Assembly (NCBI GenBank): GCA_024653945.1
Contig: JANLIT010000002.1
Coordinates: 146,508-210,507 of the forward strand
DNA length: 64,000 bases
Origin: Candidatus Campbellbacteria bacterium
GTDB taxonomy: Bacteria > Patescibacteriota > Minisyncoccia > Phycocordibacterales > EsbW-18
Direction of reading: 5' to 3'
Shown: positions 2,419 to 59,068 of the stretch, piece after piece
How the letters are laid out: every line of letters starts with the position of its first letter
Position numbering within the stretch: the stretch's first letter is position 1
Made by a program: the position numbers and the translations under genes
Notes under the pieces: model-generated
Seen by the model: the letters and a program-made list of their open reading frames with translations, nothing else
The model's database searches: none
What the model was told of the DNA's origin: nothing

Positions 2419-2712
2419 TTACCGAACGAAGATTTGGAGGACCATCTCTCCTTGCTTGGTCTTGAAGTGACGCTCGCTTCCTTCACCTTCTTCGGAGAAT
2501 GTCACCGAAAGAGGGATCTCGAAAGTCCCAAGGCTGGGGGGATTACTCCCCGTGTCCTCAAACTCCACCACCAAGAGCTCTCGATTCGTATCGACCGTGA
2601 GGCCCTTGATAACACCACCGGACAACTCGTTGTTCTGATTCCTCACAACTCTGCCCGTTGGGGCAGATTTTGCAACATCTTCCCATCCCTTGTCCTGAAT
2701 GAATCTGATCAT
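2419..2712 (-). CDS. Hypothetical small protein (GC-rich ORFan with strong SD)
   Basis: GAGGAGG sits 6 nt upstream of the ATG (MIRFIQDKGW...). GC content is clearly above that of neighbouring genes. No recognisable family. Confidence 0.5.
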   Translation of the reverse strand: MIRFIQDKGWEDVAKSAPTGRVVRNQNNELSGGVIKGLTVDTNRELLVVEFEDTGSNPPSLGTFEIPLSVTFSEEGEGSERHFKTKQGEMVLQIFVR

Positions 2713-2789
2713 ACATACCTCCTCAGCCAAGTGGCCGAAAGTTGACTTCTGGAAGCACTGTAGAGTATTTAGTGTCTTACGTCAAGTAT

Positions 2790-3764
2790 TTAACGATATT
2801 CAAGAATATCAACCACTTTTCCCGTGTCATCAATAAGGGCGATTGCCTCACGCCTTTCTCGCCACAGAGTCTTACTTGAACCCAAAAAGAGTCGCCACGT
2901 ATTTCCTAAAAAGTCAGAATCTGTTTTGTGTAGTTCGAGACATCCATCATATGTGGAATACGTACGTATAAAAGCTCTACAAAAACTAGGGGTGGTGCTT
3001 GCATAGGTTCCGCGGTCACACGAACCAGTGTTTTCAATGCCATCCATGCACGCGTCGTATTCTTCTTCATCGTCAAATGCGTCTGGTGTAATGCCAAATG
3101 ACACAAGGTCTTCATCTTCTAGGAGGGGACACGACTGCCACATACTTGGATTAAAGTTGTAACTACGGTTCAAATATCCTGTACATTTGTTTTCTAAAAA
3201 TCCCGTGTTTATTCCAACTGCGTATCGCGAATTTATAATCGCCCGCTCGCCTGGTGCAAGAAAGACGTTTTGTTCTTTTTTCCACGGCTGGTTACCTTCA
3301 AGAACGGCAACACCTTTTGGTATAGCAACACGAGTACCAGAAACCAGACTTTCAAGTTTCCATCCAGAAATAACAATCGGGGCAGTATTTGCACCACTGG
3401 CTTCAATGATGAGATATTCATCACGAGAATTTTGTGTGTAGGTATTACCCGCGCTCAAAGTAATCATTCCGTGGTATACAGATTGGTTTTTTTCATCAAG
3501 GGCCTCTTGTACCGCCCGTGCAATTTTTGCAATTTCATCTTCAATACGGTTTAATTCGCCCTGTTTGTATTCTGCGTCACTGACAACGCCATCATTATTG
3601 TTGTCATATGAACGGGTGTATGCCGCAGAACTTTCAATAGAATCAGTACCACCCAAAAAACTGTATGACGAAGAATTATTAAGGACGGGAACAGTTTCTT
3701 GTACGTACGAGATAAAAAAGACGGCCGCAATGATAAAAAAAAGAAATTTGACGAGGTCGTTCAT
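2790..3764 (-). CDS. Membrane-anchored secreted protein, possible lamin-tail-like domain
   Basis: N-terminal TM helix FLFFIIAAVFFISYV. Segment VISGWKLES...GTRVAIPKGVAVLEGNQ...LAPGERAIIN resembles an LTD fold. Cys-rich C-terminus. Confidence 0.5.
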   Translation of the reverse strand: MNDLVKFLFFIIAAVFFISYVQETVPVLNNSSSYSFLGGTDSIESSAAYTRSYDNNNDGVVSDAEYKQGELNRIEDEIAKIARAVQEALDEKNQSVYHGMITLSAGNTYTQNSRDEYLIIEASGANTAPIVISGWKLESLVSGTRVAIPKGVAVLEGNQPWKKEQNVFLAPGERAIINSRYAVGINTGFLENKCTGYLNRSYNFNPSMWQSCPLLEDEDLVSFGITPDAFDDEEEYDACMDGIENTGSCDRGTYASTTPSFCRAFIRTYSTYDGCLELHKTDSDFLGNTWRLFLGSSKTLWRERREAIALIDDTGKVVDILEYR

Positions 3765-3812
3765 ATAAAGTAGAGGTTGGAAGTTGGATATGGGAAGTTG
3801 GAATGGGGGTGA

Positions 3813-5102
3813 TTAGTTTAGTTTTTTCAACTCTTCTCTGACTACCGTTGCGTCGTCCCAAGGTATTTTACTCCCATTCGGACCCATAATATACGGGTCG
3901 GTACCTTTGCCGGTTATAAGAACAGCAACACGCGCGTGGGGGTTTGTTGTAGCCATTTTTTGGGCCAGTACGAGTGCTTCATGGAGGGCCTCTCGTCTAT
4001 CAAGAATAATAGAAAGTTTTGATGTATCTTGTATACCCTCCGCCATTTGTTCTAGAATTTTTTGAGGGTCTTCGTCATATGGGTCTTCGTTGGTGAGAAA
4101 AATATGTTGGCAAGATGCTTCGGCAATACGCGCCATTTCAGGGCGCTTCCATGTGTCGCGTCCACCTCCAGTATTTCCAAGAACACCAACAACTCGAGAA
4201 AGAGAGAATGCCTCATAGATGCTTTTTAGTGAATCAGGTGTGTGTGCGTAGTCCACCACCACATCAAACGCTTGGCCTTCTCGTATAAATTCTGCACGCC
4301 CAGGAACGCTGGTTACACTTTCTAGCCCCTCTTTTATTTTCTGGGGTGGAATGTTTTGGCTCTGTGCAAAAGTTGCAGCCGATAGTGCGTTATACACATT
4401 AAAAAGTCCTGGAATAGCGAGATGGATACGCTCTCCACCAAATCCAAACTCATAACCCGTGCTTGTTTGGCTGTACGGTTTTGCGTCTGAAAGATGAAAA
4501 GGAAATGCACGATTGGCGCCACACTCTAAAAACGAAAGTGCCTCAGCATCGTCTGCGTTTGCAATAATCGCAGTATTTTGTTTGTGTGAGTGTGCAAGTT
4601 GTTGTGCGACAGACAATTTTGCATCGCGATAGTTCTCAAATGAGCCGTGTGATTCAAGGTGTTCGGGCGCGAGATTGGTAAAAATAAGCGCATCCATGGC
4701 AATCCATTTGTGGCGGAACTGTTTCGCACCCTCACTCGTCATTTCAATGATTGCCCAATCACATTTCTCAGTAACTGCGTTACGCAGAAACTTTTGCACA
4801 AAAAATCGCCCCGGAATCGTCATTTTGTAGAGGTTGCGTGTTTCGGTGTCGGCAACTTTGAAACGAATGGTGCCAAGAAGCGCGGTTGTGTATCCCGCGG
4901 ACTCAAGAATTGCATTTACCAACTCTGCTGTTGTTGATTTTCCTTTGGTGCCGGTGATGGCAACAACTTTGATATGGCGAGAAGGGAAGCGATAGACAAG
5001 CGTACCGAGGAGGGCGAGTTTCCAGTGGTAGATTGGTTGCAATGCCGTAAACAGCTTTGTGGGAATGAACCGTTTGATGAACCGAAGAGTTTTGTTGAGC
5101 AT
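3813..5102 (-). CDS. murE: UDP-N-acetylmuramoyl-tripeptide synthetase (Mur ligase, MurE-type)
   Basis: ITGTKGKSTT P-loop, DYAHTPDSL motif, Mur ligase middle and C-terminal domains. Confidence 0.75.
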   Translation of the reverse strand: MLNKTLRFIKRFIPTKLFTALQPIYHWKLALLGTLVYRFPSRHIKVVAITGTKGKSTTAELVNAILESAGYTTALLGTIRFKVADTETRNLYKMTIPGRFFVQKFLRNAVTEKCDWAIIEMTSEGAKQFRHKWIAMDALIFTNLAPEHLESHGSFENYRDAKLSVAQQLAHSHKQNTAIIANADDAEALSFLECGANRAFPFHLSDAKPYSQTSTGYEFGFGGERIHLAIPGLFNVYNALSAATFAQSQNIPPQKIKEGLESVTSVPGRAEFIREGQAFDVVVDYAHTPDSLKSIYEAFSLSRVVGVLGNTGGGRDTWKRPEMARIAEASCQHIFLTNEDPYDEDPQKILEQMAEGIQDTSKLSIILDRREALHEALVLAQKMATTNPHARVAVLITGKGTDPYIMGPNGSKIPWDDATVVREELKKLN

Positions 5103-5152
5103 GCTTGTTTATCAAGGTTAAACCTCGATATATCGAGGTTTAACCTTGATGA

Positions 5153-6211: not shown

Positions 6212-6544
6212 ATGGGGAAGACTGTGTGGTATATCAAACCGAAGAATGGACATACCTCGGAAGCAGTCGGGAGAGTGACTTCCGACGAGGACCTGCGTTA
6301 CGAAATAAGATGCTCCGATGGGGTTAAGAGGAATCTTTACCGATGTGAGTGGGGAGTCCTCGAGACCGCCTTGGGCTCGGCGGAGAACATCTATCTTCAC
6401 TTCAATGTCTGGAGACAACGGGGGACCAGTCTTCCGGCGCCCTTTGATCCACGAAAGGTGTTCGTGGGGAAGGAGCCTCCTAAGGTTCAAGCACGTACAT
6501 GGCTCGCCAAGCAGAAGGCGCGCAAGGCCGCTCACACGTCGTGA
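6212..6544 (+). CDS. Hypothetical small basic protein (GC-rich ORFan with SD)
   Basis: AAGGGGAG lies 7 nt upstream of the ATG (MGKTVWYIKPKNGH...). GC content is well above flanking genes. A hairpin terminator overlaps the stop codon. Confidence 0.5.
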   Translation: MGKTVWYIKPKNGHTSEAVGRVTSDEDLRYEIRCSDGVKRNLYRCEWGVLETALGSAENIYLHFNVWRQRGTSLPAPFDPRKVFVGKEPPKVQARTWLAKQKARKAAHTS

Positions 6545-6557
6545 GCGGTTGTTTTTT
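6528..6557. terminator. Terminator hairpin
   Basis: ccgctcacacgtcgtgagcgg followed by ttgttttttt. Confidence 0.6.
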
Positions 6558-7756: not shown

Positions 7757-7816
7757 TGGCGCCTCGTCATCATTTTTGCTAGAGTGTGCGTGTTGGACTC
7801 TCGTGTGGAAAATTCG

Positions 7817-7969
7817 CTCCTGTATGGAGTACCATACGGAAGCTCAGTCGGACCACATATGTGCTTGAGCTCCCACGTCCTCGGACCCGAGTAAAAAAGA
7901 AAACAGGCTTTCTTTTTTACTCTCTCCTCGAACGCTTCGCTCTACGCACATGCGTGTCATCCTCTTTTC
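7817..7969 (+). repeat. Conserved noncoding leader element, copy A, directly abutting tRNA-Arg
   Basis: About 85% identical to 12688-12841 (ctcctgtatggagtaccat...gaccacatat...gagctcccacgtcctcgga...aaaagaaaacaggctttctttttt...ctctcctcgaacgct...catgcgtgtca). The reading frames of the two copies differ, so it is not protein-coding. Confidence 0.7.
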
Positions 7970-9471: not shown

Positions 9472-9504
9472 CATGTAACTTGAAACAAAATGTGTGGAAT
9501 AATA

Positions 9505-9547
9505 GTGTTACACGTTACATGCTACGTGTTACATAATTCATAACATA
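9505..9547 (+). repeat. GTTACATG-family motif cluster ending in the start codon
   Basis: gtgttacacgttacatgctacgtgttacataattcataacatatg. Confidence 0.6.
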
Positions 9548-9885
9548 TGATTACCATCGACCAATTAAAAACCGCAGATATTCGTATCGGACAAATTCTT
9601 TCTGCAGAAGAAGTTCCCGAGACAGACAAACTCCTTAGACTTACTGTTTCTTTTGGTGAAGAGACACCACGTCAAATTATTTCTGGAATTAAACAGTACG
9701 TTGCTGATATACAAACACTCGTGGGCAAAAAAACCGCATTTGTAGTAAACCTTGAACCCCGCACCATTAAAGGACTTGAAAGCAACGGCATGTTGTTTGC
9801 TGTCTCGACGGGTGAGGGTGAAGAACGACAGTTTTCTTTCATTGTCCCCGAGAGAGACATACCGCCAGGCGCCCGTTTGGGTTAG
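9547..9885 (+). CDS. tRNA-binding domain protein (CsaA / MetRS C-terminal-like)
   Basis: DIRIGQILSAEEVPETDKLLRLTVSFGEE..RQIISGIKQY matches the tRNA_bind OB-fold consensus. Confidence 0.75.
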   Translation: MITIDQLKTADIRIGQILSAEEVPETDKLLRLTVSFGEETPRQIISGIKQYVADIQTLVGKKTAFVVNLEPRTIKGLESNGMLFAVSTGEGEERQFSFIVPERDIPPGARLG

Positions 9886-12578: not shown

Positions 12579-12687
12579 ACAGAAAATAGTAGCTAGTATG
12601 TGGAGGTTGGTATGTTGGGGTATTAAAATTTTCATAAAAAGTTTGTGAAGGTAAAAGGGAAGTTTTTGTGATAGGGTAGGCGTGTCC

Positions 12688-12841
12688 CTCCTGTATGGAG
12701 TACCATGCGGGAGGTCACTCGGACCACATATAAGCTCGAGCTCCCACGTCCTCGGAATCGAACAAAAAAGAAAACAGGCTTTCTTTTTTGTTCTCTCCTC
12801 GAACGCTACGCTCTATGACTCATGCGTGTCACCCTCATTTT
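12688..12841 (+). repeat. Conserved noncoding leader element, copy B, abutting tRNA-Arg(UCU)
   Basis: About 85% identity to 7817-7969. Confidence 0.7.
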
Positions 12842-17274: not shown

Positions 17275-17294
17275 CCTGCCTGCCGGCAGGCAGG
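17275..17294. repeat. REP-like perfect 20-nt palindrome CCTGCCTGCCGGCAGGCAGG (copy 1 of 4)
   Basis: Flanked by ggaagttagtgg / gggatgttggaagttgg. The other copies are at 20019, 57524 and 59219. Confidence 0.75.
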
Positions 17295-18053: not shown

Positions 18054-18544
18054 GTACTTCTGATATGGAAATAAGAAAACCCGTTTTAAATAAAGGTATT
18101 CTGAAAAAGAAAACTTTTACGAATATTTCCGTGACGGAACTTGAGGGTGTTTTTATTGTTGGTGGTTCTTTAGAAAATCAGAATATTGAAGATATAAAAA
18201 TTGATACCAGCGCCCTAGAAGACATCTCCTTTCAATCCTCAAAAGTAAAAGATATACAATGTATTGATTCAACCCTCACAGGTGCTAACTTTGCCGGAGC
18301 TTCCTTTGAACAAACTTATTTTGAAAGAGTTTTAATAACAAAAAGTCGTTTCCAAGGGACACAGTTTATGGGGTGTGTTGTCCGTGATGTGATGATTGAG
18401 AAATCAAAGTGTGCAGATGTATCATTTAGGTTTGCAAAAATAAAAGATGTGGTTTTTCTTGGTTGTGATTTAGAAAATGCCGACTTCATGGGGGCTAGTA
18501 TGGAGAATGTTGTGTTTAAGGATTGCAGTCTTAGGAATTCATAA
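18047..18544 (+). CDS. Pentapeptide-repeat protein (interrupted by in-frame TAA at 18542-18544)
   Basis: Tandem A(D/N)LxG-type repeats. After the TAA the same frame continues for 49 more repeat-like codons (FSQTKLKNISFKDADIEG...) to a TAG at 18692. Confidence 0.65.
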   Translation: MVSTSDMEIRKPVLNKGILKKKTFTNISVTELEGVFIVGGSLENQNIEDIKIDTSALEDISFQSSKVKDIQCIDSTLTGANFAGASFEQTYFERVLITKSRFQGTQFMGCVVRDVMIEKSKCADVSFRFAKIKDVVFLGCDLENADFMGASMENVVFKDCSLRNS

Positions 18545-18811: not shown

Positions 18812-19498
18812 ATGAGCGTGAGTGAGAAGGTTATCGTAGCCACAGACGAGCTTCCTCTCGGTGCGTGCTTGGATTTGGCGCGCGCCATCGGGCAACAGGT
18901 CTATGCGTTCAAGGTTCACAACCTGTACGATATGGACCCGTCCATCGTCACCCAGCTTCACAAGGCAGGTGCGCGACGCGTCTGGGTTGACGCGAAACTT
19001 CACGACATCCCGAACACGGTCAGGCTTCGTGCTCAGGCATTCGCCGACGCAGGTGCAGACATCATCACGGTGCATGCATCGGGTGGTATCGAAATGATGA
19101 TGGCCGCACTTCAGAGCGGTATTCCCGAGATCTTTGCGATTACGGTTCTCACCTCTCTCTCGGAAGAGGAGACGCATCTATTACATGGGCAGCCGTCCAA
19201 GGCGGCAGTGCTCTACCTCGCGCGCATGGCCAAGCTTGCCGGCATGCAAGGTGTTGTCTGTTCGCCGAAGGAAGTCGGCATTCTCTCCAAACGTCCCGAG
19301 CTCAAAGGTCTCACTCTCGTGACGCCGGGAGTTCGTTCCGTCGGTAAGGATGCCGGCGACCAACAGCGTGTTGATACGCCCCTCGCGGCACTCAACGCCG
19401 GTGCGTCCTACCTCGTTGTGGGTCGCCAACTCACAAAGGCGCCCGATCCTGTCGCCGCTCTCGCCCAGCTCGAAGAAGAGATCGCCGAGGTAATCTGA
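18812..19498 (+). CDS. pyrF: Orotidine 5'-phosphate decarboxylase
   Basis: VIVATDE, DAKLHDIPNTV (the D-x-K-x-x-D-I-P-x-T signature), VHASGG. AGGAGACG SD. GC content is clearly higher than the window average. Confidence 0.8.
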   Translation: MSVSEKVIVATDELPLGACLDLARAIGQQVYAFKVHNLYDMDPSIVTQLHKAGARRVWVDAKLHDIPNTVRLRAQAFADAGADIITVHASGGIEMMMAALQSGIPEIFAITVLTSLSEEETHLLHGQPSKAAVLYLARMAKLAGMQGVVCSPKEVGILSKRPELKGLTLVTPGVRSVGKDAGDQQRVDTPLAALNAGASYLVVGRQLTKAPDPVAALAQLEEEIAEVI

Positions 19499-20018: not shown

Positions 20019-20038
20019 CCTGCCTGCCGGCAGGCGGG
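20019..20038. repeat. REP-like palindrome, degenerate copy (cctgcctgccggcaggcggg)
   Basis: One mismatch relative to the 20-nt consensus. Confidence 0.6.
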
Positions 20039-24306: not shown

Positions 24307-24349
24307 AATTATATAAGTTAAGATTATTAGATTAATTAAAGAACTTATT

Positions 24350-24571: not shown

Positions 24572-24589
24572 TAGATTAATAAAAATTAT

Positions 24590-36752: not shown

Positions 36753-36850
36753 CATGAAACATGTAACAGGAAACATGTACCATGAAGCATAAAACAAATA
36801 ACAAAACACAAGAATCAAATTGTTACATGGTACATGCTACACGACACATG
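36753..36850 (+). repeat. GTTACATG/CATGTAAC motif cluster spanning the pseudopilin start codon
   Basis: catgaaacatgtaacaggaaacatgtaccatg...ttgttacatggtacatgctacacgacacatg. Confidence 0.6.
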
Positions 36851-42698: not shown

Positions 42699-42760
42699 TT
42701 GACGGATGTGGTTTCTCCATGTATTGTCGACACGGATACAGTTCTTTCAGGGAGGGAATT

Positions 42761-42982
42761 ATGAACAAAGACGACCCATCGCTCGCGTATCGCCAGGAAC
42801 AGGACGAATTTGCCATCTACGGATCGAATGGAAGTGGTCCTGTCGTGCTTTCACTCGAGGATTTTCGGAAACTTCTCGATGAAGGACACCGTCTGCTTCT
42901 AGACCGAAGTCTGCGTCGTCATGAGTGGAACAAAAAGACTCCACCCAACGATTCCGCGGAGGTATCTCATCAGGAGGCATGA
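42761..42982 (+). CDS. Hypothetical small acidic protein (GC-rich ORFan, SD GGGAGGG)
   Basis: MNKDDPSLAYRQEQDEF... 74 aa. Strong SD. Confidence 0.45.
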   Translation: MNKDDPSLAYRQEQDEFAIYGSNGSGPVVLSLEDFRKLLDEGHRLLLDRSLRRHEWNKKTPPNDSAEVSHQEA

Positions 42983-43023: not shown

Positions 43024-43269
43024 ATGTCACTGCACAGGAGCTTTCATTCCAAGATCTCACGGTCTCGTCGGAAGACTCGGCAGCAGACGCCAGGTCAGGC
43101 TCGTTCTGCCGAGCGCAAGCGCCAGTGCCAGAAGCGTCGGTTGAAGGGAGCCGATGTAGGGCGTCTCTATCAGGAGGCTCTGCGTCAGAGCGAGGAATTC
43201 CGGCGCTTCGAAAGGGACAGGGAGGCGAAGAACAGAGATAGGTATCCCTACAGCTACAGTCGCTGGTAG
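43024..43269 (+). CDS. Hypothetical Arg-rich basic small protein (GC-rich ORFan, SD AAGGAGGTG)
   Basis: MSLHRSFHSKISRSRRKTRQQ... 81 aa, about 30% Arg/Lys. Confidence 0.45.
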   Translation: MSLHRSFHSKISRSRRKTRQQTPGQARSAERKRQCQKRRLKGADVGRLYQEALRQSEEFRRFERDREAKNRDRYPYSYSRW

Positions 43270-43318
43270 GTTTTCGAAGCAAGAAGCAAGCCTCGCACGG
43301 AAGTGTGGGGCGTTTCAT

Positions 43319-43735
43319 TTATATAAATGCATTTCGAATTTTTTCTCCGGTCTGTTGCATTTCTCCTTCAGCATAGGGTTTGCCGTGCCACTGCTCGCGC
43401 CCGTCGTCTGCTAAGCGTGGAATGACGTGTATGTGGGCATGGAACACAATTTGCCCCGAAATACCACCATTGTTTGAAACGATATTAACACCGTCACAAC
43501 CAGTTTTTTTCAAGGCGGTAGCCACTTTCTTTGCTGTGATTACCACGTGACTAAGTGTTTCTTCGGGTGTATCAAATATGTTCAAAAAGTGTTTTTTGGG
43601 AAGAACAAGTGTGTGCCCAGGATTCACAGGATTGAGGTCTAAAAAAGCAAAGGTATATTCATCTTCGTATACCTTTTCTGCAGGAATTTTTCCCGCCACG
43701 ATTTTACAAAAAATACAGTCTGACATACCTGCCAT
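43319..43735 (-). CDS. HIT-family (histidine triad) hydrolase
   Basis: C-terminal HAHIHVIPR histidine triad. Ap4A hydrolase-like fold. Confidence 0.8.
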   Translation of the reverse strand: MAGMSDCIFCKIVAGKIPAEKVYEDEYTFAFLDLNPVNPGHTLVLPKKHFLNIFDTPEETLSHVVITAKKVATALKKTGCDGVNIVSNNGGISGQIVFHAHIHVIPRLADDGREQWHGKPYAEGEMQQTGEKIRNAFI

Positions 43736-43756
43736 TGTAGCGGTATACTGCTCTCA

Positions 43757-45511
43757 ATGAAAGAGTACACAATTGCTGAAAAACCAAGCGGGGAGAGGGC
43801 ACGGGAGCTCGCCGAATACTCGGAGATTGTTCAAAATCTCTTATTTCACCGAGGTATTGTGACTGCACCCGCAGCGGAGGCGTTTATTTCGCCAGACTAC
43901 GACCGTGATGTGCACGACCCGTTTTTGCTCCACAACATGGACAAAGCAATTGAGCGTATTCTTTTGGCGATAGAGCGCAATGAACACATTGCACTCTTTT
44001 CTGATTTTGACGCAGACGGTATTCCTTCTGCGGTGGTGATGCACGACGTCCTCAAAAAAATTGGATATGAAAATTTCTCTATCACTATTCCACACCGAAA
44101 TATAGAAGGGTTTGGTCTCAATGAAACGGCAATCTCAAATTTTATTGAGAAAAAAGTCGGACTCATCATCACACTTGATTGTGGTATGGGAGATGTTGGA
44201 CATATTGCTCGCGCAACCGAAGCGGGTATTGATGTCATCATCACCGACCACCATATGGAAAATCAAGAGGTGCCGAAAGCATTTGCAATTGTGAATCCAA
44301 ACCAAGAAGGGGACACGTATCCAAACAAAAATTTGTGTGGCGCAGGTGTTGCGTTCAAAGTCGCACAAGCATTTCTTCAAAAACTAGAGGACAAAAGTAA
44401 AAAGAAAGAGCTCACACCTGCATTTATGCTCCACCCGTCCATTGCCCCAGGGTGGGAGAAGTGGCTTTTGGATATGGTTGGTATCGCAACACTCTCTGAC
44501 ATGGTCTCGCTCACGGGAGAAAATCGTGTGTTTGTGCACTATGGACTTCTTGTGTTACGAAAGTCACCACGTCTCGGTGTTCGCACACTTCTTTCACATT
44601 TGCGGATAAAACAACACACGCTCACCGAAGATGATGTGGTATTTATGATTACTCCACGGATTAATGCAGCATCACGCATGGATGAACCAGAGGCAGCATT
44701 TCAACTTCTTTCAACAACAGATCTGACGGAAGCAGAAACACTGGTGCGTCACTTGGATACTATCAACAACGAACGAAAAGGTGCGGTTGCGCAGATGTCC
44801 AAGGAAATAAAACAAAAATTTGAGGAAACACCAAATGAATTTCCAGTTATTGTTGTGGGGAATACGCACTGGCGTCCAGGCTTACTTGGACTCGCTGCAA
44901 CACATGCGGTTGAAGCCTACGGAAAAAGTGCCTTTGTGTGGGGACGGGGAGACGCGGCCGTTATTAAAGGCTCCGTGCGGTCCGATGGGCGTGTTGGTGT
45001 GATGGAGTTGATGAGTGAAGTACGACATCTCTTTATTGAATTTGGGGGACACAAGTATTCGGGCGGTTTTTCTATCACGGTAGAAAATCTCATGTTGTTG
45101 GAAGGTGCACTTTCAGAGGCACATACAAAACTTGCATCAAAAGAAGTTTCTGAAGAAAAGCTTACCGTTGATGCAGTACTTTCTCTTGATGATGTTACAC
45201 AAACTACGTACTCAGACATTACACAACTGGCTCCTTTTGGTGCAGGAAACCCAAAACCAGTGTTTGCATTTGAACAGATACAAATTGATAGAGTAGAAAT
45301 GTTTGGAAAAGAAAAACAGCATATTAAATTACTTTTTAAAACATCAGCAAACAAAATGATTTCTGCAGTGAAGTTTTTTGCGAAAGGAAATCCTACATTG
45401 GAAGGGTTGTCAGCAGGGCAGAGCATCACACTTCTTGCATCTCTTGAAAAAGAAACATTTGGCTACACGAATGGCATCCGATTGCGCATTGTTGACGTAC
45501 TCACGTCCTAA
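43757..45511 (+). CDS. recJ: Single-stranded-DNA-specific exonuclease RecJ
   Basis: DHH motifs (FSDFDADGIPS, DCGMGDV, ITDHH), DHHA1 domain, C-terminal OB. Confidence 0.8.
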   Translation: MKEYTIAEKPSGERARELAEYSEIVQNLLFHRGIVTAPAAEAFISPDYDRDVHDPFLLHNMDKAIERILLAIERNEHIALFSDFDADGIPSAVVMHDVLKKIGYENFSITIPHRNIEGFGLNETAISNFIEKKVGLIITLDCGMGDVGHIARATEAGIDVIITDHHMENQEVPKAFAIVNPNQEGDTYPNKNLCGAGVAFKVAQAFLQKLEDKSKKKELTPAFMLHPSIAPGWEKWLLDMVGIATLSDMVSLTGENRVFVHYGLLVLRKSPRLGVRTLLSHLRIKQHTLTEDDVVFMITPRINAASRMDEPEAAFQLLSTTDLTEAETLVRHLDTINNERKGAVAQMSKEIKQKFEETPNEFPVIVVGNTHWRPGLLGLAATHAVEAYGKSAFVWGRGDAAVIKGSVRSDGRVGVMELMSEVRHLFIEFGGHKYSGGFSITVENLMLLEGALSEAHTKLASKEVSEEKLTVDAVLSLDDVTQTTYSDITQLAPFGAGNPKPVFAFEQIQIDRVEMFGKEKQHIKLLFKTSANKMISAVKFFAKGNPTLEGLSAGQSITLLASLEKETFGYTNGIRLRIVDVLTS

Positions 45512-45577: not shown

Positions 45578-46195
45578 ATGTCTCACGACACGCTCGGCAG
45601 AACAGTTGTGGCGTTTATGGATGCCAGCGAGGAGTCCCAGAATCTCATCACCGATTTTGCGGAGAAGCTCATGAATCCTACCCCCGAGTGGGTTCGAGAG
45701 TCAAAACACTTTCTTCGCAAGGAGCCGTGCTGGGTTTCGTATGGGGTGGTTGCCACTCCGATGCTCAACCTCCTCGAGTTCTTCAAAACTCGAGAGGGTC
45801 TCGGGGTCTCGTGGGAGTTTAAAGAGCAAATTCTCGCTCCAGCGCTCGCGATGGGGGGCGACTTGCTGGCAACGGTTGGCACGCCGTTTGACCTGCCGAA
45901 GGACATGGACGAGGGCGAAATCCGCAAGGAGCTCGGCGAGAACCATGTCTTCGAAGATGCTCGCTCGTTCTGCCTCTACCTTGCCAGCGCTCTCGGGCGT
46001 CAGTGGGACGGCAAGGATGGGGACTTCCTGACCAATGGGAGCGCGAACACCTTCTATGTTTGCGGACTCAACGGTGAGGTCTTTGTGGTCGACGCCTACT
46101 GGAGCACTGACGACAGCGGGTGGAGCGTGCTAGTGTATTACTTAGACACCATTCGCTGGGATGCAGGTGACCGTGCCTTTCCCTGCAGTTCCTGA
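45578..46195 (+). CDS. Hypothetical protein (GC-rich ORFan with AAGGAG SD)
   Basis: 205 aa. No recognisable motifs. GC content higher than the flanking recJ/rnhA. Confidence 0.45.
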   Translation: MSHDTLGRTVVAFMDASEESQNLITDFAEKLMNPTPEWVRESKHFLRKEPCWVSYGVVATPMLNLLEFFKTREGLGVSWEFKEQILAPALAMGGDLLATVGTPFDLPKDMDEGEIRKELGENHVFEDARSFCLYLASALGRQWDGKDGDFLTNGSANTFYVCGLNGEVFVVDAYWSTDDSGWSVLVYYLDTIRWDAGDRAFPCSS

Positions 46196-47119: not shown

Positions 47120-48607
47120 ATGCCGAGTATTTTTGTATATGCTGGAGTCATTGGTTTTCTTGTGGGTGTTGCGGTGAGAAGTGTGTTTGAGGTGCCAATG
47201 ATTTTTGAGGTTTGTGTGGGAATTGTTGGAGTCTGTGTATGTGTGGCAGGTGCCGCACGGCGCGGGAGTACCCGCGCCGTGCTCTCGTGTGGTATCTGTT
47301 TTGTTCTTTTTTCTGCTGGGCTCATTCGTGCAGATGTTTCATTTGCGAACGATGGAAATTTCCTTGATGCACAACTCGGACAAACAATAATTGAAGGAAT
47401 TGTTGTCGGTGAGCCCTCGTTTACGGAGAAATCTCAAAATGTGACGCTCAAAGTTTTGCACGAAAAAGAAACAGCACGCGTGAGTATTATTACTTCGCCA
47501 TTCCCTCCGTTTGTGTATGGCGACGTGCTTCGGGTATCTGGAAATCTCAAAAAACCCGAATCATTTGTTACTGATAACGGCTCAACGTTCAACTATCCAG
47601 CGTATCTTGCTAAAGACGGCATTTTTCAGCAGATGCTGTTTCCTATAATAGACATTATTTCACGTGGCAAAGGAAACTTTTTGTATCGCGCGTTGTTTTC
47701 TGTTCGACGACGGTTCGTTGATACTGTTGCCACACATCTACCCGAACCGAACGCATCACTCCTTTCAGGAATTTCTATTGGTGCAAAAGATGGTATGGAT
47801 GATGCAACAGATGAAATGTTTCGGCGGGTGGGCTTGATTCATATTGTCGTGTTATCTGGATACAACATTACGGTTGTGTCAGATACGGTGATGCGACTTC
47901 TCTCGTTTTTACCACGTGCGTTTATGTTGGGAGGGGGAGGTGTGGTGGTACTTTTATTTACTATTATGACTGGTGCAACGGCCACAGCGGTTCGTGCAGC
48001 AAGTATGGCAGTGCTCGCGCTTCTTGCTCGAATAGTGGAAGCGAAATACGACATTGTTCGCGCGCTGTTTCTTGTTGCGTTTGTGATGGTTCTACACAAT
48101 CCGCGCGTACTGCTGTTTGACCCGTCGTTTCAGCTTAGTTTTCTGGCGACGTTTGGGCTCATCACACTTTCACCGATTATTGAGAAAAAACTCGCGCGTG
48201 TTACCAACACGTTTTCATTGCGTCAAACACTTTCTGCAACACTTGCCACACAAGTATTTGTGGTACCACTATTGGTACATATGAATGGGCAGGTGAGTTT
48301 CATTTCGCTTGTTGCGAATGTTGTTGTGTTGCCAGTCATTCCGCTCTCCATGTTTTTCACGTATCTTTTGGGTGGTATTGGTCCATTTGTAGCACCAGTC
48401 GCAACACTTCTTTCATTTCCAACATTTGTTGTTTCCGAATACATTTTGGAGGTAAGTGACTTTTTCTCGCGTGTACCCTTTGCATCAGTTGATGTTGGTT
48501 TGCATCCTGCCATACTCCTTGTTGTGTACAGTGTACTTCTCTGGTGGATTTGGAAACAACAACACCCACCAAAGAGGCGGGTGTTGGGTGACAACCAGAA
48601 TGTGTAG
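47120..48607 (+). CDS. comEC: ComEC/Rec2-family DNA internalisation channel protein (no lactamase domain)
   Basis: N-terminal DUF4131-like TM/OB region. Competence domain with DDATDEMFRRVGLIHIVVLSGYNITVV and multiple TM helices. Confidence 0.75.
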   Translation: MPSIFVYAGVIGFLVGVAVRSVFEVPMIFEVCVGIVGVCVCVAGAARRGSTRAVLSCGICFVLFSAGLIRADVSFANDGNFLDAQLGQTIIEGIVVGEPSFTEKSQNVTLKVLHEKETARVSIITSPFPPFVYGDVLRVSGNLKKPESFVTDNGSTFNYPAYLAKDGIFQQMLFPIIDIISRGKGNFLYRALFSVRRRFVDTVATHLPEPNASLLSGISIGAKDGMDDATDEMFRRVGLIHIVVLSGYNITVVSDTVMRLLSFLPRAFMLGGGGVVVLLFTIMTGATATAVRAASMAVLALLARIVEAKYDIVRALFLVAFVMVLHNPRVLLFDPSFQLSFLATFGLITLSPIIEKKLARVTNTFSLRQTLSATLATQVFVVPLLVHMNGQVSFISLVANVVVLPVIPLSMFFTYLLGGIGPFVAPVATLLSFPTFVVSEYILEVSDFFSRVPFASVDVGLHPAILLVVYSVLLWWIWKQQHPPKRRVLGDNQNV

Positions 48608-50698: not shown

Positions 50699-52027
50699 AT
50701 GGTTCAAACACTTCGTCGTGTGGCAGCAAAGGCCCGGGCGGTACGGTCAGAAGACCTCTTTTACTGTCCTGTCCATCGGTCTAGAATTAGTGTTGGGGCA
50801 TGTAAGGCATTCTGCTCTGTTCCGCAGAACAACACGGAACGGTGCACGAGGGAGTTTCACTGCGAGTCGCCGTGGCGACTCTGCTGGGCGTGTCTTCTGA
50901 ACCACGGTTTAGGAGAGAGGGGTGGTGTGGCAGAAAACAAGGACCGCGGACTCTGTGATTTTCATCTCAAGAACGGTATTGAGAAGCGTCCCGATTGGGC
51001 GCCAAAGAGAGATGGAGAAAGCGGGCACGGTTCTTCTATCGACGACATCTCAGACCGTATCAGGAGTCACTCGCACACGGCGGGGGGTGGAGGAAGCGGT
51101 ACAGTAAAGACACAGAAGACTATCCATCTCGTCAAAGGGAAACAAGTTCCCGTCGACACCGTTCTTGAAGTTGACTGTGCGCTGGTAGTTCCTCTGAGTG
51201 AACAGCCACGCACGTACTTCGACAAAGATGAGCTCGAGGGTCTCCTCAACTCAATTGCCGAAGCGGGGCAGATTCAGACCGTTCCGGCGGTTTCACTTCC
51301 CGACGGCACATTCCGCATTCGTGATGGTGAACGACGGTGGCGAGTGTGCACGAAGCTCAAGCGTCCGCTACGTGTCGTTGTCGTTCCCGAGCTTCCTCAT
51401 GAGGAGGAGATTGAACAGGCGGCAATCGCAAACTTCCTTCGGCAAGGTCACACACCGATTGAACAAGCGCGCATCTTCATGCGACTCAAGGAAGGACCGC
51501 TGAAGCGCACCGTCGCGAAGATTGGTCAGATGTTTGGCATGACGACCGCGAGCGTCTACAACCACCTCATCCTCATCGAGAAGCTCGACGTGCGCGTTCA
51601 GAATCTCATGGATCCGGTGAAGCAGGGAAGTTCAAAAGCAATCCTGCGTCCCTCGGTGGCTCAGTATCTCACCGCATTTCACGAACGTCCTGAAGAGCAG
51701 GTGGGGCTCGCGCGAGAAATTATGAAGCGCAAGCTCAACCTGCGCGAAGCAAAGACCTTGATCGACAAGTATGCCGACAAGCTCAAGATCAAGACGGGGC
51801 GTGGGCGAGAGGCACAACCGTATGACCACATCCGGACTATCAAACGGACGATGGCAAACACCAGTATCGTTCTCGATCGGTTCTCGGAATTCTCCGACGA
51901 CGATTGGGAGCGTCTGTGGAAGACGCACTCATGGACCGAGCGGGAACTTGTTGCCAATCGTTTGACCACGCTCATCAAACGACTACAGGAGCTCCAAGGT
52001 CACGTTGACCGGACGCTCAAAGGTTAG
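50699..52027 (+). CDS. ParB-like nuclease-domain protein with N-terminal 8-Cys cluster (GC-rich island)
   Basis: N-terminus CPVHRS..C..C..C..C..C..C..C. ParB_N motif FRIRDGERRWRV. HTH TVAKIGQMFGMTTASVYNHLIL. GGAGGG SD. GC far above the window average. Confidence 0.65.
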   Translation: MVQTLRRVAAKARAVRSEDLFYCPVHRSRISVGACKAFCSVPQNNTERCTREFHCESPWRLCWACLLNHGLGERGGVAENKDRGLCDFHLKNGIEKRPDWAPKRDGESGHGSSIDDISDRIRSHSHTAGGGGSGTVKTQKTIHLVKGKQVPVDTVLEVDCALVVPLSEQPRTYFDKDELEGLLNSIAEAGQIQTVPAVSLPDGTFRIRDGERRWRVCTKLKRPLRVVVVPELPHEEEIEQAAIANFLRQGHTPIEQARIFMRLKEGPLKRTVAKIGQMFGMTTASVYNHLILIEKLDVRVQNLMDPVKQGSSKAILRPSVAQYLTAFHERPEEQVGLAREIMKRKLNLREAKTLIDKYADKLKIKTGRGREAQPYDHIRTIKRTMANTSIVLDRFSEFSDDDWERLWKTHSWTERELVANRLTTLIKRLQELQGHVDRTLKG

Positions 52028-52232
52028 TGTGAAGAAGGTCTTTTTGCGGCGCGGTGGGGAAGTCCCTACCGCGTCGTTTTGTTTTTCATACAATATATAG
52101 AGCACACAAAAGACCTTGACTTTTACGTAATTCCAAGTATAATCGTCCTCGGAAGTAGCTTGTAAACTAAGAAACAAAAGAAGTACAAAACTGGAGCATA
52201 CTGCTCCACAACTCTCTCGAAAGGAGAGCAAC

Positions 52233-53462
52233 ATGCGAAAGCTCGCGATAGCGCTGTCTGTCCTCGTTCTCATGATCGTCGCCGTTCCGGCGATGGCATT
52301 CGAGATTACTCCAAACAACCCGATCGACAACGGCAATTTCGCCAAGTCGACGGCGTCGTGCGACGGCAAGTTCCTGATCGGACAGTCCGGTCAGAACAAT
52401 GTTGAAGTGTACACCCACGCGGGTGTCTACCTCAACTCGTTTGGGGCACCTAGCTACCAGCTCTCCGGATTCTTCGGTGAGTCGTTGGCCGTCACTCCCA
52501 ACTGCGCGACGGCCGTCGTCGGCGCCAAGGGGTACGATGGCACCGGTGCCATCTTCGTCTTCGACTGGAACGCATCTCTGGGTGAGTATCAATTCGTCGT
52601 GAAGAAAACGGCGGCGGGGCTCGTCCCGGGCGATGACTTCGGTCAGTCGGTCGCGGTGACCGACGATGGTCAAACCGCCTTTGGCGCGTCGTACCTCAAG
52701 AACAAAGTGTCTTCGTTCGCGCGGTCTGCAAGTTGGACCGAACACGTCGTTTCGATGCCCGATCTTTCGGCTAGCGATTACGCGGGGTTCGCCCTGTGTG
52801 TCGCGGGCGACGACTTGGGTGTCGGTGTTCCTCTGCAGTACAACAGCGGCATTCCCGGTGCACTCTACGTTCACCGAAAAAATACTGGTGGCGCAGGAAA
52901 CTGGGGGTACGTGACCAAGTTCACAGGCCTCGAGCGTCTCGGGTATTCATGCGGAGGGAGCGGACCACGTTTCATCTCCGGCGCTCCGCTTCACAACTTC
53001 GACACACTTCCTCCAGGGTCTGGTGCTGGACAAGGACAGGGTGTTGTGGTGACGTTCCGCCGACACGTCGGCGGGTCGTACACCGTCGAGCATACCTTTG
53101 CCCCCTCGCTCGGCTTCGCCGAGTGCGGTACGTCCGTCGGGATTTCCGGGATCAACGTCATGTTCGGCTGTCCGTACGCGGACGTGGGTTCGGTGGACGA
53201 TGGAAAGTCCAACGCCTTCTCTCGGGCAAACGGTCTGGGGAACTGGACTTCCGAGTTCACCCTGTTCGACAACGACCCACAGGTACTCGATCGTGTCGGA
53301 TTCTCCTGCGCTGTCGGTGGTGGGGAGGGGATTGCCGGTGCGCCGTTTTCCGGTGAGGTTGCTACCAATGCCGGAGCCGCATACTACAACACCTACTCGT
53401 TGGTGTTTGCCGACGGCTTCGAGTACGGCGATACGTTGGAGTGGTCGTCCGCCGTTCCGTAA
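52233..53462 (+). CDS. Secreted FG-GAP-repeat protein (integrin-alpha-like beta-propeller) (GC-rich island)
   Basis: Signal peptide MRKLAIALSVLVLMIVAVPAMA. At least four FG..A....GD..G..D...GAP-like repeats (FGESLAVT, FGQSVAVTDDGQTAFGAS, VGFSCAVGGGEGIAGAPF). AAGGAGAG SD. Confidence 0.6.
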   Translation: MRKLAIALSVLVLMIVAVPAMAFEITPNNPIDNGNFAKSTASCDGKFLIGQSGQNNVEVYTHAGVYLNSFGAPSYQLSGFFGESLAVTPNCATAVVGAKGYDGTGAIFVFDWNASLGEYQFVVKKTAAGLVPGDDFGQSVAVTDDGQTAFGASYLKNKVSSFARSASWTEHVVSMPDLSASDYAGFALCVAGDDLGVGVPLQYNSGIPGALYVHRKNTGGAGNWGYVTKFTGLERLGYSCGGSGPRFISGAPLHNFDTLPPGSGAGQGQGVVVTFRRHVGGSYTVEHTFAPSLGFAECGTSVGISGINVMFGCPYADVGSVDDGKSNAFSRANGLGNWTSEFTLFDNDPQVLDRVGFSCAVGGGEGIAGAPFSGEVATNAGAAYYNTYSLVFADGFEYGDTLEWSSAVP

Positions 53463-53615: not shown

Positions 53616-54488
53616 ATGCGCTCATGGAAACTATATCTTTTTGCACTCGCGCTTCTTGTTTTTATAACGGGAAGTATTTGGTATGTTGCACACCAATTTG
53701 AACGTGAGCCAGTTTTAACCGTTGCATTTTTAGATATTGGACAAGGCGACTCTATATTTATTGAAAGCCCGTCGGGAAAGCAGATGCTTATTGATGGTGG
53801 TCCAGACAAGCATGTCATACAACAACTCTCTCGTGTGATGCCGTTTTTTGATAGAAGCGTTGATGTCGTTCTCAACACACATCCGGACAAAGACCACATC
53901 GGCGGATTGCCCGAGATACTGCGTCGCTATGATGTGTCGTACGTTATGGATCCAGGAATTGAATCGGACAGTGGAACGTACGGATACTACATACAACTTG
54001 TCGAACAGGAAATACAGAAGGGCGGAAAATATATTGAAGCTCGGCGAGGACAAATAATTAATTTTCAAGATGGTGCATACGTGCGCATTTTATTTCCTGA
54101 CCGTGACGTAAGCGCTGTGACAAACAATAACAATGCATCTATTGTTGTGCAGGTTGTGTATGGAAACACAGAAGTGATGCTGACAGGTGACGCACCACAA
54201 AGTATTGAAAAATATGTGGTGGCGCTTGACGGAGCAACACTCAAGAGTGATATTTTGAAAGCGGGACACCATGGTTCACGAACATCAAGCTCTCCTGAAT
54301 TTGTACGAGCAGTTTCTCCGACGTACGCGATTATTTCTGCGGGAAAAGATAATCAGTATGGCCACCCACACAAAGAGGTTATGCAACTTTTTGCATCATC
54401 AAGCATTCAAACCCTCGCCACATACGACCTCGGTATAATCATTTTTGAAAGCGACGGGAAAACAGTAAAAGTAGAAAGTGGTATGTAG
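53616..54488 (+). CDS. Metallo-beta-lactamase-fold protein, ComEC C-terminal domain-like
   Basis: One N-terminal TM. DIGQGDS, HPDKDHIGG, AGHHGSRTS motifs as in the ComEC lactamase domain. Start chosen at MRSWK because 53508-53600 forms two perfect stem-loops. Confidence 0.65.
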   Translation: MRSWKLYLFALALLVFITGSIWYVAHQFEREPVLTVAFLDIGQGDSIFIESPSGKQMLIDGGPDKHVIQQLSRVMPFFDRSVDVVLNTHPDKDHIGGLPEILRRYDVSYVMDPGIESDSGTYGYYIQLVEQEIQKGGKYIEARRGQIINFQDGAYVRILFPDRDVSAVTNNNNASIVVQVVYGNTEVMLTGDAPQSIEKYVVALDGATLKSDILKAGHHGSRTSSSPEFVRAVSPTYAIISAGKDNQYGHPHKEVMQLFASSSIQTLATYDLGIIIFESDGKTVKVESGM

Positions 54489-56334: not shown

Positions 56335-56365
56335 GTCAAAGCCCAAAATCCAAAGCACAAAGCTC
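56335..56365 (+). repeat. AAAATCCAAAGCACAAAGCTCAAAA module (left arm flanking the four-helix-bundle gene)
   Basis: Module copies also at 232-262 (partial), 5745-5770 (AAAATCCAAA x2), 56771-56795 (each sub-module inverted) and 58071-58096. Confidence 0.6.
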
Positions 56366-56370
56366 AAAAA

Positions 56371-57523: not shown

Positions 57524-57543
57524 CCTGCCTGCCGGCAGGCAGG
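57524..57543. repeat. REP-like 20-nt palindrome (copy 3), followed by a T-run
   Basis: cctgcctgccggcaggcagg then gatttttt. Confidence 0.75.
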
Positions 57544-57651: not shown

Positions 57652-58068
57652 ATGTCTACAATCAACCAACTCATACGAAAGAATCGAAAGAAATCAGCTC
57701 GTAAGACAAAGACGACTGCTCTTGGTCGTGGTTTTAACACACTTGAGAACCGACCATCACGATACCCATCTCCATTTAAGCGTGGTGTGTGTACACAAGT
57801 GAAGACAACAACCCCAAAGAAACCAAACTCGGCTATTCGAAAAATTGCGCGTGTACGATTGACGAACGGTCAGGAAGTAACGGCGTACATTCCAGGAATG
57901 GGACACAAGTTGCAGGAACACTCGGTGGTGCTGTTGCGAGGCGGTCGTGTAAAAGACATCGGAGTTCGTTACACTATTGTTCGTGGAACATTTGATGCTG
58001 AAGGAGTAGAGAAGCGAAGAAAAGGACGAAGTCACTATGGGGCAAAAAGACCAAAAGTAACCAAATAA
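57652..58068 (+). CDS. rpsL: 30S ribosomal protein S12
   Basis: [10 protein letters not shown]...[54 protein letters not shown]. Confidence 0.9.
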
Positions 58069-58070
58069 GC

Positions 58071-58096
58071 ACAAAATCCAAAGCACAAAGCTCAAA
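58071..58096 (+). repeat. AAAATCCAAAGCACAAAGCTCAAAAG module between rpsL and rpsG (gene-less copy)
   Basis: Followed 28 nt later by ttttttggatttt (inverted sub-module). Confidence 0.6.
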
Positions 58097-58169
58097 AGAA
58101 CTTTAAATTATAAACAATCAAACATTTTTTGGATTTTAAATTTTGAACTTCGAATTTTAACTCATCATT

Positions 58170-58667
58170 ATGCGTCGCAAACTAAAAGAACGAGAAAAAC
58201 ACCCAATGCTTCCAGACCGAGTGTACCACTCAGTTACGGTCAGTAAGCTTATTGCGCACGTGATTAAAGATGGAAAGAAGAGTGTTGCTCAAAAGCTTGT
58301 GTATGATGCATTTGATATTTTGAAGACAAAGAACAACATTGAAGATCCTTCGGCATTTTTGGAACAAACAATTCAAAGTGTTGCGCCAACAATGGAAGTT
58401 CGCTCACGACGTGTGGGAGGTGCAAACTACCAGGTTCCTCATCCGGTTCGTCCCGCACGACAATTGGCCCTCGCACTTCGCTGGATTCTTGAAGGCGCTC
58501 GTGCAAAGAAAGGTGCAGATTTTGCAACACGACTCGCAGGAGAATTGCTTGCCGCAAGTAAAGGGGAGGGAGGTGCCATGGCAAAGCGTGACAACGTTCA
58601 CAAAATGGCAGAAGCCAACAAAGCATTTGCTCACTTCGCACTTGCGAGACCGAAAAAAAGAACGTAG
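58170..58667 (+). CDS. rpsG: 30S ribosomal protein S7
   Basis: VAPTMEVRSRRVGGANYQVP...ALRWI is the S7 core. Confidence 0.9.
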   Translation: MRRKLKEREKHPMLPDRVYHSVTVSKLIAHVIKDGKKSVAQKLVYDAFDILKTKNNIEDPSAFLEQTIQSVAPTMEVRSRRVGGANYQVPHPVRPARQLALALRWILEGARAKKGADFATRLAGELLAASKGEGGAMAKRDNVHKMAEANKAFAHFALARPKKRT

Positions 58668-58686
58668 TCATCATTTTTTCAAACAC

Positions 58687-58710
58687 GAAAACCGCCAACT
58701 GGCGGTTTTT
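58687..58710. terminator. Rho-independent terminator
   Basis: aaaaccgccaactggcggtttttt. Confidence 0.75.
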
Positions 58711-58783
58711 TGTTGACATAAATATCGAGAAAGAGTAGTGTGTTTTTAGGTTTTGTACTCTGTCTACAAAGAAAGGAAAAACA

Positions 58784-59068
58784 ATGACCACCGTTTCGCT
58801 GGAAAAGCTTCGAGAGGCCGTCGACTTTCTCAAGGGGGAAGAAGAAAGACTTCGACAGGTTTGTAAGCGAGCCTGTTACTGCGAAGAGAATCACATGGAT
58901 CTCAAAGGGGCGTGCCACCATTGCAACACTCACGGTCTCGTTTTCGATCTTGCGAAGACGGGTGGAAAAATTCTCGAGATGGAGACGGAGGAATTCCACA
59001 TCGAAGCACCGACCTTTCTCGCTCGTGTGCAGAAGCAGTTTCCTAAGGCAGCCGCAGCGGCTATCTGA
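58784..59068 (+). CDS. Hypothetical Cys/His-rich small protein inserted between rpsG and fusA (GC-rich)
   Basis: 94 aa with CYCEENH...CHHCNTHG (putative Zn site). Followed by a hairpin and a REP-like palindrome. Confidence 0.5.
   Translation: MTTVSLEKLREAVDFLKGEEERLRQVCKRACYCEENHMDLKGACHHCNTHGLVFDLAKTGGKILEMETEEFHIEAPTFLARVQKQFPKAAAAAI

Follow-up and report, generated by a model that had tools for sequence, protein, structure and literature searches.

GC-rich genes with Shine-Dalgarno leaders occupy reused gaps in the AT-leaning genome of a Candidatus Campbellbacteria bacterium

In a 64,000-nucleotide (nt) stretch of a Candidatus Campbellbacteria genome (contig JANLIT010000002.1, positions 146,508 to 210,507 of the forward strand, assembly GCA_024653945.1; hereafter the window), we observed two gene populations, namely an AT-leaning core lacking Shine-Dalgarno (SD) sequences and a GC-rich, SD-led, variable minority. 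On balance, we favour the reading that the nine open reading frames (ORFs) flagged as members of this minority are horizontally acquired units of the flexible genome, placed in reused gaps beside the AT-leaning, SD-less core. The window comes from a 238,534-bp contig of a metagenome-assembled genome (MAG) with NUW02_ locus tags, which NCBI taxonomy assigns to the Parcubacteria group of the Patescibacteria, or Candidate Phyla Radiation (CPR). Its GC content is 44.6%, and besides the housekeeping genes usual for CPR it includes seven tRNAs, ComEC and genes of a type IV pilus.

All per-gene statistics refer to 77 hand-curated genes, comprising the nine flagged ORFs at eight loci (C1–C6, C7a, C7b and C8) and 68 others, referred to as native. 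SD pairing was scored as the predicted duplex energy between the 20 nt upstream of the start codon and ACCUCCUUU, a sequence that may not match the host's own 16S tail; a 16S rRNA gene was found neither in the window nor in 181 fetched loci, those from the reference genome CP064977 containing 23S only. The flagged ORFs, with their GC content at third codon positions (GC3) and SD motifs, are the following.

2419..2712, minus strand: C1, 97-amino-acid (aa) ORF of no recognised family, MCR4274656.1 (hypothetical protein); GC3 0.61; SD GAGGAGG 6 nt before the ATG
6212..6544, plus strand: C2, conserved small protein of 110 aa, unannotated in the source; GC3 0.63; SD AAGGGGAG
18812..19498, plus strand: C3, pyrF (orotidine-5'-phosphate decarboxylase); GC3 0.66; SD AGGAGA
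42761..42982, plus strand: C4, 73-aa ORF, MCR4274709.1 (hypothetical protein); GC3 0.49; SD GGGAGGG
43024..43269, plus strand: C5, 81-aa Arg/Lys-rich ORF of doubtful coding status; GC3 0.68; SD AAGGAGGTG
45578..46195, plus strand: C6, 205-aa member of a rare uncharacterised family; GC3 0.70; SD AAGGAG
50699..52027, plus strand: C7a, ParB-like protein with a Cys-rich N-terminal extension (an extra 150 aa); GC3 0.60; SD GGAGGG
52233..53462, plus strand: C7b, secreted FG-GAP-repeat protein; GC3 0.71; SD AAGGAGAG; own promoter-like site at 52116–52143
58784..59068, plus strand: C8, 94-aa ORF between rpsG and fusA, unannotated in the source; GC3 0.57; weak SD AAAGGAAA (−5.9 kcal/mol)

A first-pass annotation of this DNA had described these loci as GC-richer than their surroundings and SD-led, and the native genes as AT-leaning and SD-poor. 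All eight loci (nine ORFs) are where it placed them, with its SD motifs 5–10 nt before the ATG, and both parts of the contrast are statistically significant. The flagged ORFs have a GC content of 0.51–0.60, compared to a mean of 0.43 for the 68 others, and a GC3 of 0.49–0.71 (mean 0.63) compared to 0.28–0.49 (mean 0.37; Mann-Whitney p = 1.7e-6). Their predicted SD energies range from −5.9 to −13.1 kcal/mol (mean −9.6), against a mean of −1.0 in the native genes (p = 1.9e-6), and the classes stay apart when each native gene is granted the best SD over all its alternative starts (p = 1.2e-5). Random ATGs in the window reach an energy of −7.3 or below with a probability of 0.044, and ATGs within the GC-rich genes themselves with a probability of 0.109; eight of the nine flagged ORFs pass this level (binomial p = 1.7e-7). 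The contrast is weakest for C8, because of its SD energy, and for C4, whose GC3 equals the upper edge of the native range.

The jump in GC is confined tightly to the borders of the flagged ORFs, with AT-rich intergenic flanks, and promoter-like and terminator-like sites surround each gene. The codon shift spans all amino acids and codon families, which fits a different compositional background, and ribosomal-protein genes show no GC3 shift, making classical translational selection unlikely. Six of the nine ORFs have no Pfam family, the other three being PyrF, the ParB-like protein and the FG-GAP-repeat protein; the earlier description of these genes as ORFans is right only in part, C2, C6 and C8 having homologs elsewhere.

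The native genes show start signals of another type. A TATACT-like box lies 4–12 nt before the start codon in 13 of the 68 native genes (3% expected) and in none of the nine flagged ORFs. One example of the native pattern is the following.

43720..43759, plus strand: −35/−10 pair CTGACA-18-TATACT, ending 7 nt before the recJ ATG (43757)

The placement of this pair implies a leaderless recJ mRNA, as predicted from the promoter position, and the lack of SD sequences in native genes would be explained in part by many of them being leaderless, judging from the position of the −10 box. In a crude survey of approximately 70 rpsG loci, the share of Paceibacteria genes with an SD energy of −7 or below was mostly 0–15%, near the rate of random ATGs in the window; this survey is underpowered, recovering only four SD-led genes among the window's own ten GC3 outliers, because its first-ATG rule mis-sets starts. 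We found no description of the leaderless pattern for Parcubacteria in the searchable literature.

Comparison with the closest complete genome, the closed CP064977.1 (811 kb), showed that the GC-rich class is also largely variable. Across the approximately 80 kb colinear with the window (which includes fetched locus L008), eight of the nine flagged genes are unshared, compared to 24 of the 68 native genes (p = 0.003), C2 being the shared exception. The reverse comparison gave the same picture: CP064977 genes with a window homolog have a GC3 of 0.29–0.52 and no SD below −6.5 except two marginal cases (−6.9), whereas 20 of 21 genes with a GC3 of at least 0.53 have no window homolog at the protein level, and ten have an SD energy of −7 or below at the called start. 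These GC-rich genes of CP064977 occupy the same gaps that are filled in the window, namely trmH|hyp324, pgk|HIT, recJ|rnhA, cwlJ|MBL (metallo-beta-lactamase) and rpsG|fusA, with differing contents. The trmH|hyp324 gap, the site of C1, holds two different small, GC-rich, SD-led ORFs; the pgk|HIT gap holds a different GC-rich ORF of 124 aa; the recJ|rnhA gap holds a GC-rich ORF of 196 aa whose only similarity to C6 is a weak one at the N-terminus; and the cwlJ|MBL gap, the slot of the window's largest island, holds a GC-rich island of 9 kb. The rpsG|fusA gap, which measures 6–300 nt in most of approximately 77 Paceibacteria loci, is expanded in this clade. Most flagged genes are singletons when clustered at 90% identity, and an all-against-all phmmer search of 56 accessory proteins returned only one paralog pair, in CP064977, the proteins being otherwise mutually unrelated. 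Reuse of slots with differing contents fits the signature expected of foreign flexible-genome cassettes at recurrent sites. The first-pass suggestion of repeated acquisition thus draws support from the foreign composition, from the absence of eight of the nine genes from CP064977 and from the refilling of the same gaps, but is limited by the several flagged genes that are conserved residents.

The sharp jumps in composition, in a source that is a MAG, could also arise from chimeric assembly or from binning contamination by GC-richer organisms. We consider such an artefact very improbable, since the inserts measure 0.3–3 kb within a contig of 238 kb with native genes on both sides, the same pattern recurs in the closed genome of 811 kb and in assemblies made independently from further samples, and orthologs of C2, pyrF, the ParB-like gene and C8 lie at the same junctions.

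These four genes qualify the picture of single insertions between housekeeping genes that the first-pass annotation had drawn. In relatives, their homologs hold the same slots and have an SD, which means that these four are not fresh single insertions; the shift in composition is shared too, except that the C8 ortholog has a GC3 of only 0.47. Their ratios of nonsynonymous to synonymous divergence (dN/dS) are 0.04–0.15, indicating from sequence comparison that they are real genes under purifying selection. The C2 ortholog in CP064977 (L008:10351-10677) lies in the same rpsT|dedA slot with 80% aa identity, a synonymous divergence (dS) of 0.79 and a dN/dS of 0.15; its GC3 is 0.71, its SD is AAAGGAGGAAGG (−11.9), and its promoter and leader are conserved with those of the window gene, whose terminator lies at 6526–6550. 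Neither C2 nor C8 has an entry in the protein collection, and C2 is uncalled in CP064977 as well.

The pyrF product matches PF00215 over its full length (E = 3e-44, 151.9 bits against a cut-off of 27) and has thousands of homologs, the best of which are all from Patescibacteria, at 66–74% identity. The gene is not found at the colinear place in CP064977; in fetched locus L003 it occupies the same slot beside pyrE, both genes being SD-led with GC3 values of 0.68 and 0.72 among neighbours of 0.3–0.4. The window and L003 leaders of pyrF are homologous, and the dS of 1.31 is at the level of the adjoining genes.

C7a carries PF02195 ParB_N (41.3 bits) and PF17762 HTH_ParB (23.6 bits), both above cut-offs, followed by a strong terminator at 52046–52077. 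No ParA-like gene was noted beside it or its homologs in the neighbour tables, which were not searched for ParA specifically, and we class the protein only as ParB-like, not as a ParB/Spo0J partition protein. Full-length homologs (41–75% identity) occupy the same slot, between Hydrolase_2 and MBL genes, in L017, L018 and L019/L020; all are SD-led and have a raised GC3, which in L017 exceeds that of all called native neighbours, in L019 that of both native neighbours and in L018 that of most. A distant homolog of C7b (25–29% identity) adjoins the ParB-like gene in L019/L020, with a GC3 of 0.70, an SD and the gene order swapped. The slot lies between two parts of a split ComEC, in which a DUF4131+Competence gene (47120–48607) and a separate metallo-beta-lactamase gene (53616–54488) are approximately 5 kb apart. 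The variable slot falls in this interval together with sodA and a cell-wall hydrolase gene, and every relative examined has ComEC divided and arranged in this way.

C8 belongs to a family with 14 homologs among 1.84 billion representative proteins, in which a CxC..D..G.C..C motif is invariant. The L021 homolog (70% identity) lies upstream of fusA with the same SD-like motif, and the dN/dS of C8 is 0.11. Its structure model (helical; predicted local distance difference test score, pLDDT, 82) gave no significant PDB match, and a metagenome scan with the C8 alignment gave no matches.

The SD cores of C2, pyrF, the ParB-like gene, C6 and C8 are kept in orthologous leaders that have otherwise diverged. 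Such persistence points to selection on the SD, so that the SD of the flagged genes probably functions in these organisms.

For these four genes, the first-pass alternative of an endogenous gene class with distinct initiation signals is still viable. Long residence raises the question of an endogenous two-tier system, in which long-resident genes sit at their own GC-rich equilibrium and use SD initiation, through selection, for instance for a translational or regulatory channel of their own, or through GC-biased repair in cassettes that recombine often, with any horizontal origin irrelevant or ancient. We regard this as possible, if somewhat doubtful. The retention of slot and SD by the four conserved genes across saturated divergence, with raised GC in all but the C8 ortholog, speaks for it, as do the promoter and leader that C2 has in common with CP064977 and the native-type −10 box GGTATACT of C6 (45542–45547), which lies 30 nt upstream and would give a leadered mRNA. 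Further support comes from four-fold degenerate sites. At native four-fold sites, the strong/weak class (G or C versus A or T) differs between the window and CP064977 at 37% of positions, with a GC content (GC4) of approximately 0.36 and an implied per-lineage decay factor of approximately 0.43. Under a two-state model, C2 and pyrF behave as if stationary at a GC4 of approximately 0.65 over saturated synonymous divergence, with native-like turnover. Against an endogenous system stand the absence of eight of the nine genes from the closest complete genome, the singleton status of most of the flagged genes, the filling of the same slots by unrelated genes in different genomes, the unshifted ribosomal-protein genes and the incongruence of ParB-like identities with those of their flanks (below). 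High GC is moreover not intrinsic to these families: the C6 homolog in L011, a genome of 33% GC, has a GC3 of 0.34, and CPR-type pyrF is AT-rich in L105, L107 and L110. A more specific proposal, that the two tiers are stable, with a leaderless AT-leaning core and a long-held GC-rich tier whose translation via SD forms a separate expression channel, we hold to be doubtful.

Horizontal acquisition would account for several signs of a probable non-vertical history, which come from pairwise identities, one dS value and gene positions in genomes whose synonymous sites are otherwise saturated. The window ParB-like protein is 76% identical to that of L019, where flanking core genes are 53–63% identical, and 42–43% identical to those of L017 and L018, where the flanks reach approximately 60%. 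C6 has three homologs (45–57% identity) in other CPR contigs, each at a different site, each SD-led and each the GC-richest gene of its own neighbourhood, even in the 33% GC genome; its structure model (pLDDT 71) gave no PDB fold match. A pentapeptide-repeat gene beside pyrF (18065–18544), absent from CP064977, has a dS of 0.15 against L003, whereas its neighbours have values of 1.0–1.4, which suggests that lineages have recently exchanged this low-GC accessory gene.

Two duplicated gene ends may record how such exchanges occurred. The first is in the rpsG|fusA slot.

59268..59303, plus strand: fusA remnant, a copy of the first 12 codons in GC-richer codons, approximately 100 nt upstream of the real fusA start

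This remnant would mark past recombination in the slot. The second is in CP064977 (L008:13691-14897), where a 51-aa 5' fragment of ruvX is followed by a 161-aa ORF and then by intact ruvX, the same duplicated-5'-end signature. Like the ParB-like identities and the pentapeptide-repeat dS, these duplicated ends would be explained by uptake of DNA and recombination within the conserved flanks, which is a proposed route.

Two repeats lie near the fusA remnant and elsewhere. A CT-rich motif, AACTTCCAAC..CCTCTACTTTAT, precedes the remnant (59240–59267) and hyp324 (3762–3776, minus strand), and similar motifs precede holA and hyp158 in CP064977. A GC-rich palindrome, CCTGCCTGCCGGCAGGCAGG, forming a hairpin like those of repetitive extragenic palindromic (REP) sequences, has four intergenic copies (17275–17294, 20019–20038, 57524–57543 and 59219–59238), two of which adjoin the AACTTCCAAC motif in opposite orientations.

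The duplicated 5' ends of downstream core genes could also be the work of an unrecognised GC-rich, ParB-bearing integrative element or episome of Patescibacteria, which would hit the 5' ends of core genes or fixed intergenic sites and, on decaying, leave single genes behind. The ParB-like gene in the window's largest island, the 9-kb island in the same slot of CP064977 and the pyrF-pyrE pair, which moves together as one unit, GC-rich and SD-led, in both L003 and L103, are in line with such an element. We nevertheless think it quite unlikely, as the islands of the window showed no gene for an integrase, a transposase, a relaxase or replication, no direct repeats flank them, and each gene has its own promoter and terminator. 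Nor did the donors named in the first-pass annotation, a phage, an episome or a host, find support: PADLOC gave no hits, PHROG gave only a generic ParB-like match for C7a, and IMG/VR scans with C7a and with C6 returned no relatives. Where relatives of pyrF, C6 and the ParB-like gene could be traced, they belong without exception to other Patescibacteria. Matching donors by codon usage was tried and set aside, the top match, a Phycisphaerae locus, reaching r = 0.77 and a GC-rich Vogelbacteria locus r = 0.66.

Several observations weigh against horizontal acquisition as the origin of the flagged genes. C2 and pyrF are long-standing residents whose promoter and leader are conserved, yet GC4 is 0.63–0.65 for C2 in both genomes and 0.65–0.66 for pyrF, with native-like strong/weak turnover; had their composition simply been relaxing to the native level of 0.36, both genes would have started from a GC4 of approximately 1.0. 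An apparent GC-to-AT excess of 22:4 among synonymous changes in pyrF shrinks against a parsimony bias toward the rarer state of approximately 2.3:1 in native controls; with this bias taken into account, only a weak excess is left. Accessory genes are also not all GC-rich, as illustrated by a low-GC, SD-less block of approximately 7 kb (window ~23683–30667), missing from the colinear region of CP064977, which encodes DUF305, DUF1573, CcdA-like, YHS and HMA-membrane proteins and several small membrane proteins. In the 70-locus survey, GC-rich Paceibacteria other than this lineage were SD-poor as well and are therefore not obvious donors of SD-led genes, and codon-usage correlation merely tracks GC3, leaving donor matching uninformative and no donor identified. 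The flagged proteins contain no integrase or transposase domains, and the inserts are surrounded by no att-like or flanking direct repeats and no imperfect inverted repeats shared between cassette ends. Finally, Tsurumaki et al. 2022 (PMC9297842) report finding an anti-SD motif in just 48% of Parcubacteria. The lasting GC might be due to genes being replaced time and again out of a GC-rich pool, to GC-biased repair of cassettes that recombine, or to selection; we found no account of such persistence of GC-rich codons in the searchable literature.

Taking these points together with the evidence for slot reuse, we still prefer horizontal acquisition and propose the following course of events. 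Core genes would have drifted to AT-leaning codons and would initiate translation without SD pairing, often from leaderless mRNAs. GC-rich genes would have entered horizontally as self-contained units, each with a promoter tens of nt upstream, an SD leader, one ORF and a terminator, and would have settled in a limited number of permissive gaps between core transcription units. These gaps would be reused across related genomes, their contents turning over or passing between lineages. A gene inserted in a gap could not easily gain a promoter exactly at its ATG and would therefore depend on its SD, which selection would then keep. The most likely route would be DNA uptake, in view of ComEC and the type IV pilus genes in the window, followed by flank-anchored recombination. 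Of this scheme, the two-class statistics, the slot pattern, the distribution of the genes over genomes, the conservation of the SD and the purifying selection on several of the genes are observed. How the genes were transferred, what the SD does in this organism and which donors they came from are inferred; the donors would be GC-richer and, at least in part, other Patescibacteria.

The remaining flagged genes add detail at the level of single loci. For C1, the reading frame is favoured by the codon model, a terminator-like hairpin follows the stop codon directly (2376–2351, minus strand), and a promoter-like site lies at 2785–2757 (minus strand). C4 has weak coding support and a promoter-like site at 42699–42727, and a search of 1.9 Mb of DNA fetched from Patescibacteria gave no homolog. 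The codon log-likelihood of C5 is positive in no frame, and the ORF, which is absent from the protein collection, is followed by a terminator-like hairpin at 43290–43311.

Genomic islands and islets at integration hot spots are a general concept of bacterial flexible genomes, and acquired DNA is more often AT-richer than its host. The flagged genes differ from such islands in being GC-richer than the host, in having another type of start signal and, for some, in holding their composition over saturated divergence; most are also lone genes equipped with a promoter and a terminator of their own, and neither mobility genes nor att sites linked to tRNAs were observed. Islets of horizontal gene transfer (HGT) are already known as a kind of feature in Patescibacteria, where up to 13% of genome length has been put down to HGT, mostly within the phylum (PMC12455944). 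The window shares with genomic islands and with these regions an atypical composition, a patchy distribution, reused gaps, uncharacterised functions and mostly within-phylum transfer. The coupling of a core/flexible split to leaderless versus SD-led initiation was not found in the searchable literature.

Likenesses to other systems are similarly partial. The −10 box a few nt before many native start codons, without an SD, recalls leaderless-rich genomes, which are found in Actinobacteria and Deinococcus and correspond to the 'group C' pattern of gene finders; here, unlike in those genomes, it is the compositionally foreign genes that make up the leadered, SD-led class. Bacteroidia likewise have a core poor in SD sequences, from which a few genes with strong SDs stand out: an anti-SD is present but little used and rare genes such as rpsU are SD-led, whereas the exceptions in the window are variable GC-rich genes and not a ribosomal autoregulatory gene. 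The same likeness may extend to those Parcubacteria in which no anti-SD motif was detected (PMC9297842). Integron cassettes, too, are small, mostly single-ORF units of uncharacterised function that vary among strains, but no integrase, attC-like repeats or array was seen here, and the units have their own promoters and are scattered singly.

For annotation, the flexible genome of these organisms can be recognised from SD strength combined with GC3, and real small genes have been overlooked, C2 and C8 being conserved and apparently under purifying selection yet unannotated. Within a single tiny genome, the window also sets leaderless or SD-less initiation cleanly against SD-led initiation, a natural comparison that is relevant to the anti-SD loss reported for Parcubacteria. 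If the anti-SD is absent in this lineage, the conserved SD-led genes would be translated otherwise or kept for another cellular context. Whether replacement, GC-biased repair or selection maintains the GC-rich codons, any of them would inform gene exchange and retention in episymbiotic CPR bacteria.

Other features of the window concern native genes. Arrays of a 14-nt periodic repeat of GTTACATGCTACAT type (1777–1850, 9491–9550 and 36740–36851) lie just upstream of a trmH-like gene, a tRNA-binding protein gene and a pilin-like gene, all native. An element of 131 nt, with no Rfam match, has two copies of 89% identity (7814–7944 and 12685–12815) directly upstream of both tRNA-Arg genes (GCG and TCT). 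An A/C-rich element of 31 nt, AAGCACAAAATCCAAAGCACAAAGCTCAAAA, occurs in copies of 97% identity upstream of a 23S_rRNA_IVP-family gene and between rpsL and rpsG (56339–56369 and 58067–58097), with weaker copies elsewhere. At the window's end, a Thr/Gly/Ser-rich ORF of more than 648 aa without a Pfam match (62054–64000), which runs past the last position, probably encodes a surface protein; its high GC (0.54) is due to its amino-acid composition, the GC3 being only 0.43.

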